Shown: positions 281 through 63,187, counted from the first letter of the whole stretch. The stretch is 63,187 bases of DNA, filler included, from Reclinomonas americana ATCC 50394 (GCA_048213135.1; 16 parts of 16 records of this genome joined end to end with filler, not necessarily neighbours in it), one strand, 5' to 3'. Made by a program: numbers and translations. The notes: generated from the letters alone by a model not told the origin.

Positions 281-1505
281 GCGGCCGCGTGGTCTACGGC
301 GTCTACGGCGACACTTTTGCAGTTCCCAGTCGCGGCCAAACCATGTCCACCGCTGTCGCCAACCTCCTCCAGCGCCAGTTTGGCGCCGAGCAGGTGAATG
401 GCACGCGCACGCTTGCCATTTCATGGAGACGCGGCGAGGCGCTTTCCGACACCATCATGGATGCGCTCGAGCACTACCTGGTGCACTACCCAGACGAGGG
501 CGTGCCGTTCTCGCCGGACGTTGTGGCGTTGCACGCGAGACAGCGACTGGCGCTGCGTGGGCCCTTTGACTGTTGAGTCTCACGTACTCTCATTCCTCCA
601 TTCACCCTCTCACTTGGGCATGCTCTCTCGCAGGTGTCGGCGATTGGGACCATGCTCCAGATGACGCTGGTTTGCAACACTCTTGCGCATCTCTCGCATC
701 CATATTCACTCATTCGAAGTACTCGCAGCTGTGCCAGAGGCGCCCCTGCCACTCCAGATCGAGGTTTGCCTTTCTCTTTTTCTCTCCCTTTCCCTCCTCA
801 TCACCTTCCCTAACTTCACTTGCAGGTCGCGCTATGCTTCTTCTACGACGCTCGCACCAAGACGAGCACCATTCGCCGCATATCAGCCGACCTGGCGGCA
901 ACTCTGTCGGCGCGCGCTCGTGGCCGCCTGGTGATTCACGCCCAGTTGTACGCGCTGGAGACGGACAATGTGTTGCATGTATTGCAGCACAATATGCGAC
1001 CCTCAGACGTGGCGGTCATGGTGGTGCAAGGACGACCGTCGTTCCAGTGGTCGCGCGACGATGCAGCCCTGACGCAGGCACACGCGGCACTACGCACGCG
1101 AGGTCTGCCCACTCGCCTCTTTCTTTGGCCCTTCCGTACTGGCTTCATCTCACTTGGTTATTGTGCGCAGGTCCGATTGTGTGTTTCGTGGTGCACGATC
1201 GCAACTCGCGCGGTCTGCGAAGACCAGCAGCCGGGTGCGTGGCGCTGGAGACGGCACTGCAAGCCGAACGTGCACTTCCGGGGCGCCAAATCAATGGCGA
1301 GGATGGTTTGCTGGTGGCGCTGGATCACGATGTGGAGCCGCTGCATGTGCGTGCGTTTGCGCACGCCATTCAGTGCCAGTTGACGGGCCAGTGGTCGGCT
1401 TTTGATATTTCAGCAGACGAACGCGGTGGTTTGGTGGGAGTTGCAGGCGGTGGCAGCGGCGCTGCCGCAGCAGATGGGGGCGGTGGTGGTTGTGCAATAT
1501 TATGA
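281..1505 (+). CDS. Hypothetical protein with C-terminal CaaX (CAIL) prenylation motif; spliced, 5' end uncertain
   Basis: Exons join in frame across introns 572-633 (T|GTTGAGT), ~669-719, ~763-825 and ~1103-1170, giving ...RGPFDCVGDWDHAPDDAVLAAVPEAPLPLQIEVALCFFYD...GGGGCAIL*. No recognisable family. Confidence 0.6.
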
Positions 1506-1528
1506 GCAAGTACATTGTACACCGATCC

Positions 1529-60396: not shown

Positions 60397-60765
60397 NNNN
60401 NNNNNNNNNNNNNNNNNNNNNNNNNNNNNNNNNNNNNNNNTTAATTAATTAANNNNNNNNNNNNNNNNNNNNNNNNNNNNNNNNNNNNNNNNNNNNTCTT
60501 CTTCTTCTTCTTCTTCTTCTCCTCCTGCTTCTGCTTCTCTTTCTGCTTCTGCTTCTCTTTCTTCTTCTTCTTCTTCTCCTCCTTCCTTCCTTCCTTCCTC
60601 CTTCTCCTTCCTCCTTCCTCCTCCTTCTCCTCTTTCTTTCTCCTCCTCCTTCCTCCTCGCCATCTCCTTCCTTCTCCTCCTCCTTCTTCCTCTTCTCCTC
60701 CTCCTCCTCCTCCTTCTTCTTCTTCTTCTTCTTCTCTCTCCCTGACCCTGCGCCACCCATTCCAG

Positions 60766-63187
60766 GTTCCTGCATGTGCTCTCTGTCAGAGCACTGCATC
60801 ATCGACGCGCGGACGAGATGCTCACCAAGTTCCACGAGAAGACGCGCGCGACGACTGTCATTGATGCTTGGTGCGCAGCATTTGCGCTGTGTTCTCTCCC
60901 CAACGCCCTCCTGACTCTCCCCCATCTCGTTGCATCATTTTCCTTTGCCTGTCAGGTACTACCCATACTCCCACTCACTGTCCGTCGAGGACGCAGCGCA
61001 TCTCGGCTTTGGTTCCGTGTCCTCATTACCATCCTCCTCCTCCACAACAACAACGACCACCACCACGACCACCTCGGCTCCCTCTTCTTCCACCAGCTCT
61101 GACCGCCTGCGCTTCGGCTTGTACTTCACCAGCGCACTGTCGGATCACGTCGGCCGCAACCGCCTGAAGCTGCTGCTGTGCCGCGTGGCGGTCGGCAAAT
61201 CGTTGGCGCGCACCGAGCGTGACGCCGCAGACTTGCACTCGCTGCCGCCGACCTTCAACTCGTTGTATGTGCCGGCGGAGCCGGTGCCAGTTGAGGATGC
61301 AGACGTTGCCGAGGAAGTGGAGGAGGGAGTGAGTGGCTCGGAGCAGGGGAGCGAGGCAGGCAGTGCGCCATCCACGGGCAGAGACGGAGGTGACGGCATG
61401 CTCGGTCGTGTGCCCGGCCGTCAGCGGCATGTGTTCTCGCAGGGTCGCATCTCGACGCCGCCGAAGAAGGCAGTGGCGATGCAGTTGCCGTCGGCCAGGT
61501 GGGGTGTGAAGGGGGAAGGGGAAGACGGAAGAGAGAGAGAGAGAGAAAGGGGGCGAATTCGGAGGTTTGCGCGTCCGTATTTGTCTCTTTGTGTCGTCTG
61601 TTCGCACTTGCGTCATTTAGAGGTCTTTCCAGTTAATCACGACCACAAATGAGCGAGATGTGAATGGCCGTGTTCTCTGTTTGCCGTCTTCACGAATTCT
61701 TAGTTGTCGATGCTCAAGTTGTGTAGTGATCCCCGCTTTGTTCCCTGTGTTTCTTGTCTGCTTTATATTCAACGGGGTGTTGTGAAAATCTCATGAATGT
61801 TGTCTTGTCTCGTCGTGCATCAACTTTGCACACCCGCGTTGCTCTTTGTCTTCCGCAATGTTGATCTCTCGTTCCCTGGTTACAGTTGCATCGCGCCAAC
61901 TGCTCGTGTCTCATCGTGTTTCAATCTCACTACTGCATGTTCCCTCCGCTTCTGCCGTTTGTCTCCTACTGTTTTTTCTCCGCTTCCGGCCTTTGTCTCC
62001 CACTGTCGTGTCATCTGGTCGTTCCGACTGTTGCACCCCGCTTCTGCCTGTTATCTCTCCTGCTGTTCTCTCCCTCCTCATCGCTCTTCGCCTCGCCCCG
62101 CAGATCCGACACCACCACGGGGTCCACTGCCAACGGCAGCAGCATGACCAACGGTACCAGCGCCGGTTACAGCAGCTTGTTTGAGGGTTTGTCTGCCTTC
62201 ACACTGCCTTGTTCTGTTCTTCGAGCGCCCTGTTAATGGTTCATTGGGGAGGCAGACACCTATGTCCTCTTCGAATCGTGGCGGTGTATTCCAGCGTTTC
62301 TGGTGGAGGTCTGCTGGGACCCGCAGGGGATTCTCTCTGGTGAGAATTATCCGCGACGTGACAGTGTCTAGCTCATCCACTAACCCTCATTCGCGCAGGC
62401 CTGCGACCTCTTCCCCCCATGGTGCACGCTGGCGAGGCCGAGGTCGACGGGTTCATGCACACAATTCTGCAGTACAAGGAGGTGCTGCACGCGTCGCTCG
62501 GCCAGCTCTCGGTGGACATTGACTCGTTCACCGACTCGTGTGTCACTCGCTCCAAGCGACTGAAGGAGGAGATGGTGGCCTATCTCGAGCAGTACATGCA
62601 CGGACTGCAGATTGCGGAAGGTGCGACAGAGAAATGCGTCGCTGTGGCGTCTCACCTCCGGCCCCTAATCCCCCTCCACTGCAGAGGTGCGCTTCGAATA
62701 CGAACGTGCTCTGGCCGAGTTCACTCGCGTGGAGGAACTGGTGGCCGCACGCACCCGAGTGGCCACCTTGCCACCGGCGCAGCAGCGAGTTCACAACACC
62801 CTCCCGCAGCTCTTGCATGCCATGAAGTTTGTATTTGATGACGGCCACATTCACACCCATCTTCTTCCTTCCGCTTCCTCACCTCTCTCCCCCCGTGGCA
62901 GATACTTCCTGGACGATCGCAAGGGCCCGCTGATGGAGACCACACAGCACGATTTCCTCCGCGCCCCCGCCTCCAGTTTGGAGGGCACTGTGCGTGAGTT
63001 GCAGCGGCAGTTGGCCAACAAGGACTCCATGATCGACAGTCTGCGGGCGGATCTGGCGCGCGCCGAAGTGTTGCTGGTGGCCGCTCAGCAGCAGCTGCAG
63101 GCACAGGCCAGTTTGCTGTCGTCTGATCGCGCAACGAATGGCTCGATGGCCAGCACGCCCAGCAGCGCCAATGGTGGTGGTGGTGGC
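60766..63187 (+). CDS. Protein with a PARP/ART-fold-like N-terminal region and coiled-coil C-terminus; partial at both ends
   Basis: AAHLGFG..FGLYFT..LLLCRVAVGKS..LPPTFNSLY..LFPVFLVCF, followed by helical exons (EEVRFEYERALAEF; VRELQRQLANKDSMIDSLRADL). Junctions between 61500 and 62100 are uncertain. Confidence 0.5.

Follow-up and report, generated by a model that had tools for sequence, protein, structure and literature searches.

Composition of the window and prediction of its introns

The DNA analysed here, referred to as the window, is the whole stretch of 63,187 bases from Reclinomonas americana ATCC 50394 (GCA_048213135.1), which consists of 16 short contigs (2-9 kilobases) joined by 15 identical spacers of the form N44-TTAATTAATTAA-N44. 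Features must not be followed across the spacer joints (window 5864-5963 and 14 further places). The window has a G+C content of approximately 52-62%, its coding stretches are interrupted by short introns ending in CAG, and the translated open frames include the eukaryotic Pfam families PDEase_I with GAF, RTP1_C1, Galactosyl_T, fn3 and TIG, along with weaker matches to cadherin and SUEL-lectin. The subject of this report is the 5' splice sites (donors) of these introns. They occur in a normal form, which mostly follows an exon ending in G, and in a shifted form with the intronic motif GTTGCGT or a close variant, which follows A, C or T with a single exception. The existence of two donor forms governed by a rule on the last exonic base (position -1) is a real and strong observation.

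All introns described below are GT...AG predictions made from sequence. The gene finder combined a three-periodic Markov coding model, the GT...AG requirement, a first-order donor model limited to +3 to +9, and an acceptor matrix. Training was iterative and used the window, and the exonic bases beside the donor were kept out of the signal models. On a reversed (not complemented) control, 20 + 13 introns were predicted, as compared with 74 + 34 on the real strands. Filtering by the total score and by the coding score of the flanks left a strict set of 64 introns (50 + 14), and no intron of the reversed control passed this filter. A second version of the gene finder, with a neutral intron-content model, yielded a wider set of 104 introns in 21 gene models, which surely includes some errors; it superseded an earlier version with a CT-rich intron model, which missed GA-rich introns and split the phosphodiesterase gene described below. 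Gene-model donors together with homology-supported sites made up a union set. A local donor test without global gene structure was dropped, since it accepted motif copies lying within exons.

Donors with G at +5 were assigned to the normal class, those with T at +3, G at +6 and no G at +5 to the shifted class, and the rest to a third, residual class. The shifted class comprised 20/64 donors of the strict set, 29/104 of the wider set and 32 of the union set (31 in its table of -1 bases), so that the shifted form represents about 28-31% of the predicted donors. The normal class probably holds some false sites located in GTGTGTGTG runs.

The last exonic base predicts the donor class

In the strict set, G was found at -1 in 20/27 normal, 1/20 shifted and 6/17 residual donors (Fisher's test, normal versus shifted, p = 1.5e-6). 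The corresponding values were 32/46, 1/29 and 8/29 in the wider set (p = 6.6e-9), and 36/52 normal and 1/31 shifted donors in the union set (p = 6.6e-10), or 1/32 shifted donors in the largest listing. The sole shifted donor following G was the same in every set, G/GTTATGT at 42664..42670 on the plus strand (strict and wider sets; here and below, a slash marks the exon-intron boundary). Intron phase was considered as a cause of this split and rejected, as the rule is present in phase 0 (G at -1 in 11/12 normal and 0/6 shifted donors of the wider set), phase 1 (17/20 and 1/15) and phase 2 (4/14 and 0/8). An effect of a single gene was likewise rejected: when the gene at 23828-29533, the source of 11/29 shifted donors, was left out, G remained at -1 in 32/44 normal and 1/18 shifted donors (p = 1.5e-6). 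Among donors with T at +3, G preceded 13/16 of those with G at +5, such as G/GTTTGT, G/GTTCGT and G/GTTTGC, as compared with 1/31 of those with G at +6; it is therefore the register that matters, and not the T itself. Codon-position composition predicts 9.0 G at -1 among 29 shifted donors, and 1 was seen (p = 3e-4).

These results agree with a previous sequence-only reading of the window, which had claimed that shifted donors follow a base other than G, with the exception at 42664, and that most normal donors follow G. The table of -1 base against donor class that it proposed shows a strong association on the predicted introns. The sites it named read as it gave them, namely T/GTTGAGT at 572, G/GTTATGT at 42664, A/GTGTGT at 14749, C/GTGTGT at 24118, A/GTGCGT at 40280, A/GTTTGT at 62827 and, on the minus strand, A/GTACGC at 21351. 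Its total of 39 shifted donors lies between the 29-32 modelled here and the 45 motif sites (43 of them independent) counted below.

We also counted the donor motifs in the whole window independently of any gene model, and compared the counts with those in 100 dinucleotide-preserving shuffles (H, any base but G; M, A or C). HGTTGMGT was observed 45 times, in comparison with 16.6 expected, a 2.7-fold enrichment that was reached in 0 shuffles; 43 of these sites are independent, as two pairs represent the same locus in overlapping contig ends. GGTTGMGT was observed 4 times, with 4.36 expected, and the excess of the shifted motif, about 28 sites, thus lies entirely after a base other than G. For the normal motif, GGTGMGT was observed 40 times (21.6 expected) and HGTGMGT 99 times (74.7 expected, standard deviation 8.75), or 86 times once short tandem repeats were removed. 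Comparison of the HGTTGMGT and HGTGMGT excesses indicates that the shifted form is the commoner route after an exon that does not end in G.

One possible explanation of the -1 rule is ordinary compensation between exon and intron, in which the register would be unchanged and GTTGCGT would be the strong intronic motif of this organism. According to PMC10599564, negative coupling of -1 G with the +4/+5/+6 consensus bases is widespread, occurring in animals, plants and fungi, where donors lacking -1 G carry the stronger intronic motif. A negative association of -1 G with intronic motif strength is also seen here, the shifted class having the stricter intronic motif and lacking -1 G. However, compensation predicts an abundance of H/GTGCGT or H/GTGAGT, and the excess of these after removal of tandem repeats (86 versus 74.7) is smaller than that of H/GTTGMGT (45 versus 16.6); the cores of normal donors without -1 G are no better (3/14 versus 6/32). 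In contrast to the coupling described in PMC10599564, the stronger motif is here displaced by one base and G falls below its neutral level, an extreme form for which compensation does not account. We therefore regard it as improbable.

Two repeated regions of the window touch the motif counts. The end of one contig (51523-52305) and the start of the next (52408-53179) are 95-98% identical over about 780 bases, which is either an unmerged overlap or a second allele; two shifted-motif sites are duplicated by this likeness. A frame with an HNH_2 domain lies at 52561-53592. A tandem repeat at 9163-9730 has a 216-base unit in 2.7 copies with 89% matches, and because each copy contains a GTTGCG motif on the minus strand, the copies are non-independent sites.

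Both donor forms in a conserved phosphodiesterase gene

With one exon as the query, a profile-free search among 1.84 billion representative proteins retrieved GAF-phosphodiesterases with 30-50% identity, and the tblastn alignments of these homologs follow a minus-strand gene from approximately 20,380 down to 15,728. A word-based search with a phosphodiesterase exon matched one protein, and a metagenome scan with such an exon gave no confirmed relative. The junctions in this gene were fixed by listing the GT...AG pairs that preserve the aligned frames.

Six junctions fixed by homology all follow G, and five of them belong to the normal class: G/GTTTGT at 20065..20071 (also in the strict set), G/GTGAGA at 19957..19963 (also in the wider set), G/GTTCGT at 18900..18906, and G/GTGAGT at both 18335..18341 and 15958..15964. 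The sixth, G/GTAAAT at 17245..17251, has A at +5 and falls outside both classes; the positions of the Pfam PDEase profile go from 47 directly to 50 across it. A further normal donor, G/GTGCGT at 19551..19557, is fixed by the reading frame, as its 35-nucleotide (nt) intron links two open frames. All seven of these junctions thus follow G, and six are normal-class. Another normal donor, G/GTTGGT at 17809..17815, with T at +3 and G at +5, appears in the strict and wider sets and in the homolog alignments.

Four shifted donors in the same gene follow T, T, C and T. The first, T/GTTGCGT at 16824..16830, is fixed by homology: the homolog alignments break off at 16825-16834 and continue from about 16058, across a GA-rich intron of 772 nt. 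At the second, T/GTTGCGT at 17943..17949 (strict and wider sets), a surplus of 20 residues in the homolog alignments equals the 60-nt intron. At the third, C/GTTGCGT at 19398..19404, a 67-nt intron is required to join two open reading frames, and a stop follows otherwise. The fourth, T/GTTGCGC at 19710..19716, also with a 67-nt intron, comes from a gene model of the wider set, and only its acceptor coincides with the start of a homolog alignment.

Some further features of this gene were observed. The 35-nt intron (19523-19557, minus strand), which reads G/GTGCGT...ACAG, lies at the lower length limit of the models. The 772-nt intron (16059-16830, minus strand) consists mostly of GA-rich repeats, CT-rich on the other strand, and early models read it as introns belonging to a gene on the plus strand. 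The final exons of the phosphodiesterase that homology supports (15728-16061, minus strand) overlap the predicted last exon (15708-15881, plus strand) of an RTP1-like gene, which reflects either converging, overlapping genes or an error in the prediction of the plus-strand exon.

Cut position and the gene at 23828-29533

The cut position was assessed at motif sites for which the upstream frame, the best-scoring acceptor and the downstream frame were chosen independently (frame test). Eleven shifted sites passed the thresholds; in 10 of these the intron length fitted /GT...AG/, and the eleventh took a farther acceptor. With the acceptor unchanged, a cut one base farther in is excluded. A slide of both intron ends by one base would keep the reading frame, yet would break the GT and AG rules. 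This leaves the explanation that the shifted class is an artefact, in which the motif sites would not be donors or the boundaries would be slid by one base (intron TT...AGN). The donors are predictions only, and the frame permits such a slide. On the other hand, the motif is enriched 2.7-fold, none of the predictions on the reversed sequence passed the strict filter, and homolog alignments end and resume at shifted sites; a slid intron would moreover violate both terminal rules, though the acceptors keep the normal CAG consensus. We hardly credit this explanation.

The shifted form is concentrated in the plus-strand gene at 23828-29533, where 11 of the 14 predicted introns of the wider set have shifted donors. 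This gene is lineage-specific and multi-domain, of cadherin/lectin-like character, and a word-based search with one of its exons found no match. The shifted donors in the wider, strict and frame-tested groups alike are A/GTTGCGT at 25308..25314, 26318..26324 and 28654..28660, T/GTTGCGT at 25723..25729 and C/GTTGCGT at 26700..26706. Those in the strict and wider sets are T/GTTGCGC at 24384..24390, T/GTTGCGT at 27893..27899, and A/GTTGCGT at 27296..27302 and at 28209..28215, the last with a GA-rich intron. C/GTTGCGT at 24564..24570 is in the wider set, and A/GTTGCGT at 24940..24946 is in the wider set and agrees with the frame test. The gene contains two diverged paralogous modules, whose junctions at 24940 and 26318 match exactly in residue and phase. 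Within these modules (24118-26320, plus strand), the continuous exon 25801-26230 lacks counterparts of the introns at 24384, 24564 and 24811; this difference in intron content indicates that introns were gained or lost after internal duplication.

Both classes share ordinary 3' signals

The 3' ends of the two intron classes were similar. The branch-like motif CTNAY occurred within the last 60 nt of 39/53 normal and 26/32 shifted introns, at a median distance from the acceptor of 19 nt and 21.5 nt, respectively. The pyrimidine fraction was 0.69 in normal and 0.66 in shifted introns, and C preceded AG (acceptor -3) in 48/53 and 31/32, giving a CAG acceptor in both classes. Shifted introns ranged from 38 to 772 nt in length. 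Shifted donors were found on 12 of the 15 contigs with predicted introns, next to normal donors in the same genes.

U12-type donors have a long, almost invariant intronic motif without an exonic consensus, and the shifted donor resembles them in this respect. The motif itself is a different one, however, and normal introns of these same genes have a matching branch-like motif, pyrimidine tract and CAG acceptor. The branch site near the acceptor without a pyrimidine tract that is proper to U12-type introns was not found (21.5 versus 19 nt; 0.66 versus 0.69). A mixture of organisms was rejected, since both forms share genes and 12 of the 15 contigs.

A historical origin was also considered, in which the GTTGCGT introns would descend from a mobile intron-generating element that carried this 5' end and inserted after bases other than G. 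The uniformity of the donor, its concentration in one lineage-specific gene (11 of 14 predicted introns) and the difference in intron content between the paralogous modules of that gene are consistent with such an origin. We compared all introns of at least 45 nt against one another by blastn, after trimming the first 8 and last 4 bases. This gave 20 hits, mostly between overlapping alternative predictions of the same DNA; the remaining ones were two matches of 15 and 17 nt and a 33-nt match of 91% identity between adjacent predictions (3979 and 4287, minus strand). Thus, the blastn comparison showed no intron families alike along their length, the lengths of shifted introns vary widely, and four shifted donors lie in the conserved phosphodiesterase gene, which makes the mobile-element origin very improbable. 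Taken together, the common 3' features, the mixing of both forms within genes and the blastn results weigh against three readings: that the shifted introns have a spliceosome of their own, that the window mixes organisms, and that the introns form a mobile family.

Other donors of both classes

The remaining shifted donors are all on the plus strand. Support from the strict set, the wider set and the frame test was obtained for T/GTTGCGT at 35033..35039 and 37125..37131, A/GTTGAGT at 38283..38289 and C/GTTGCGT at 44568..44574. T/GTTGCGT at 48953..48959, C/GTTGCGC at 55617..55623 and the shifted-class variant C/GTTTCGT at 13592..13598 are present in the strict and wider sets. T/GTTGAGT at 572..578, with an intron of 62 nt, and T/GTTGAGT at 23021..23027 are in the strict set. 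The wider set contributed A/GTTGCGT at 6447..6453 (with a weak acceptor), 13828..13834, 43225..43231 and 59342..59348, and T/GTTGCGT at 43674..43680 and 59199..59205; A/GTTGCGC at 11540..11546 is found in the wider set only.

Normal donors after G on the plus strand include G/GTGAGT at 40601..40607, G/GTTCGT at 41533..41539 and G/GTTTGT at 42458..42464, which appear in the strict and wider sets and agree with the frame test. G/GTGTGC at 14056..14062, G/GTGCGC at 31296..31302, G/GTGAGC at 36743..36749 and 39607..39613, and G/GTGCGA at 62621..62627 are in the strict and wider sets, and G/GTCTGC at 1103..1109 is in the strict set. On the minus strand, G/GTGCGT at 20409..20415 and G/GTATGT at 20693..20699 are in the strict and wider sets.

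Normal donors without -1 G include A/GTTTGT at 62827..62833 (plus strand; strict and wider sets), A/GTGCGT at 40280..40286 (plus strand), which is consistent with the frame while the gene models took 40316 instead, and A/GTACGC at 21345..21351 (minus strand), which comes from reading of the sequence. Three others, all on the plus strand and in the strict and wider sets, carry the identical eight bases GTGTGTTC: A/GTGTGTTC at 14749..14755, C/GTGTGTTC at 24118..24124 and A/GTGTGTTC at 31538..31544. These may represent a third donor form.

Proposed register of the shifted form and calculated pairing with U1

The data presented above suggest that one donor form displaced by one base exists beside the normal form, both belonging to ordinary GT-AG introns of the major spliceosome, a reading to which we give an even chance. 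In the normal form, the exon ends in G and the intron begins with GT, followed by variable bases at +3/+4, then G at +5 and, in most cases, T at +6. In the shifted form, the exon ends in A, C or T and the intron begins with an almost invariant GTTGCGT, or less often GTTGAGT. Both forms offer G-K-T-G-C-G-T to their reader, which is most likely the 5' end of the U1 small nuclear RNA, presumably one U1 for both. In the shifted form, this reader would be placed one base deeper in the intron relative to the cut, so that the intron's own +1 G would fill the slot of the exonic -1 G. The scissile bond would still be set at GU, presumably later, by U6, U5 and Prp8. As a guess, G may be excluded at -1 through competition from a G-G-U nucleus in register 0.

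To assess the register, the shifted donors were scored with a matrix of the normal donors at positions outside the class definitions (-3, -2, -1, +4, +7 and +8). The shifted donors scored -80.3 nats in register 0 and +42.0 nats in register +1, and 28/29 fitted better in +1. The intronic positions alone gave -50.6 and +44.9 nats, respectively. The intronic part of a shifted donor is therefore a normal donor moved one base inward, which upholds this much of the +1 register proposed by the sequence-only reading. The shifted core has G at +4 in 30/32, C at +5 in 28/32 and T at +7 in 28/32 donors, and no positive exonic consensus.

Several observations weigh against a simple displacement on one reader. 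The exonic positions alone gave -29.6 nats in register 0 and -2.9 nats, about neutral, in register +1; the exonic part in +1 merely no longer looks wrong. The -1 position of shifted donors also differs from the -2 position of normal donors, which it would replace (chi-square p = 0.04; G in 1/29 versus 12/46, p = 0.012). The base facing U1 position 5 is C in 28/32 shifted donors, as compared with T in 27, A in 13 and C in 10 of 53 normal donors, and this core difference (C at +5) is not predicted by a pure slide. Pairing energies were calculated with the human-type U1 5' end printed in PMC4856993, which may differ from the U1 of this organism. In register 0, the mean was -5.75 kcal/mol for normal and -0.12 kcal/mol for shifted donors. 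Moving the shifted donors to register +1 changed their mean only to -0.57 kcal/mol, with 10 donors better, 1 worse and 18/29 tied at zero, so that the predicted gain in duplex energy appeared in a minority of sites while the energies stayed near zero in both registers. The minority form GUUGAGU alone gained clearly, from 0.0 in register 0 to -5.8 kcal/mol in +1. With three U1 ends (one human-type and two invented), a shifted site after G was no less stable than one after A or U, and duplex stability therefore does not explain the exclusion of -1 G. The suggestion of the sequence-only reading that the shifted form frees the exon from a need for -1 G is not supported, as G at -1 of shifted donors lies below the neutral expectation given above rather than at it.

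The mismatch at +5 brings in the possibility of a second reader, a variant U1 or another factor that would match C-A-G-U-U-G-C-G-U without mismatch, the standard U1 serving the normal donors. Seven bases of the shifted motif hardly vary, no positive exonic consensus accompanies them, and with C at +5 mismatched to the human-type U1, the duplex energies calculated for it are about zero. A reader that places G across from the +5 base of shifted donors would fit, which amounts to a prediction on the U1 of this organism; an invented U1 end with G, C and A at positions 5, 6 and 8 gave -10.3 to -13.6 kcal/mol on shifted sites, in comparison with -2.2 to -9.0 on normal sites. However, the end that fits is an invented one, and an Rfam search of the whole window at the gathering threshold found no RNA family and no U1 gene. 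The invented end also leaves the lack of -1 G unexplained (-11.2 to -12.9 kcal/mol on a shifted site after G), and both forms occur in the same genes with common 3' signals. We consider a second reader unlikely, although a real possibility. Also unlikely, and of modest weight in our view, is a version with two parallel 5' splice-site codes, in which one U1 would read AG/GTNNGT and a variant or altered-end U1 would be complementary to CA/GUUGCGU. The two readers would compete on G-G-U, barring exons that end in G, and the last exonic base would pick the reader.

Another arrangement is a bulged-U register, in which -1, +1 and +2 would pair as usual, one U of +2/+3 would loop out and pairing would resume at +4. 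GTTGCGT equals the normal GTGCGT plus one T, and a bulge at +3 or +2 is a human register described in PMC4856993, which likewise has one extra U after GU in comparison with the consensus. That register keeps -1 G favourable, though, whereas the shifted donors show the opposite: with -1 facing U1 C9, G should be favoured or neutral, yet only 1 of 29-32 was seen against 9.0 expected. GGTTGMGT shows no excess (4 versus 4.36), and the mean energy of shifted donors in the bulge register with the human-type U1, -0.27 kcal/mol, is no better. This arrangement seems to us quite improbable. The interpretation of the shifted form as a donor in register +1 is the best available, and it is only partly supported.

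Relation to known registers and meaning

Human shifted-register 5' splice sites were reportedly first described by Roca and Krainer in 2009. Donors of this kind start with GU and are cut at GU, with complementarity to U1 one base downstream, as in the shifted form here. A register in which all U1 pairs are moved by one position is summarised, together with the +3/+2 bulge, by Tan et al. 2016 (PMC4856993). The example of the shifted register printed there, ACA/GUCAAGUAUA, also has an exon that does not end in G. The differences are considerable: in that article, validated noncanonical registers of every kind are estimated to cover about 1.5% of 201,541 human 5' splice sites in total, whereas here one form accounts for about 28-31% of the predicted donors. 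The core is GCG here and AAG in the human shifted register, with weak pairing to the human-type U1, and -1 G is excluded here but merely dispensable in the human case. A tunicate study goes no further than mentioning a shifted register as possible (PMC13326754). Full-text literature searches, of incomplete coverage, found no earlier description of a GTTGCGT-type donor class and returned only primers and human or tunicate work.

Gene finders that rely on a single donor matrix will misplace about 3/10 of the exon ends in this organism. Displaced U1 registers are known only as rare human exceptions. If the proposed displacement is true, nearly one third of the donors of a genome would be in one displaced form, with a near-absolute rule on the last exonic base. 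The recognition of the 5' splice site and the choice of the cut would then be separable on a genomic scale, and this organism would be a natural setting in which to ask how the cut is positioned once U1 has left.

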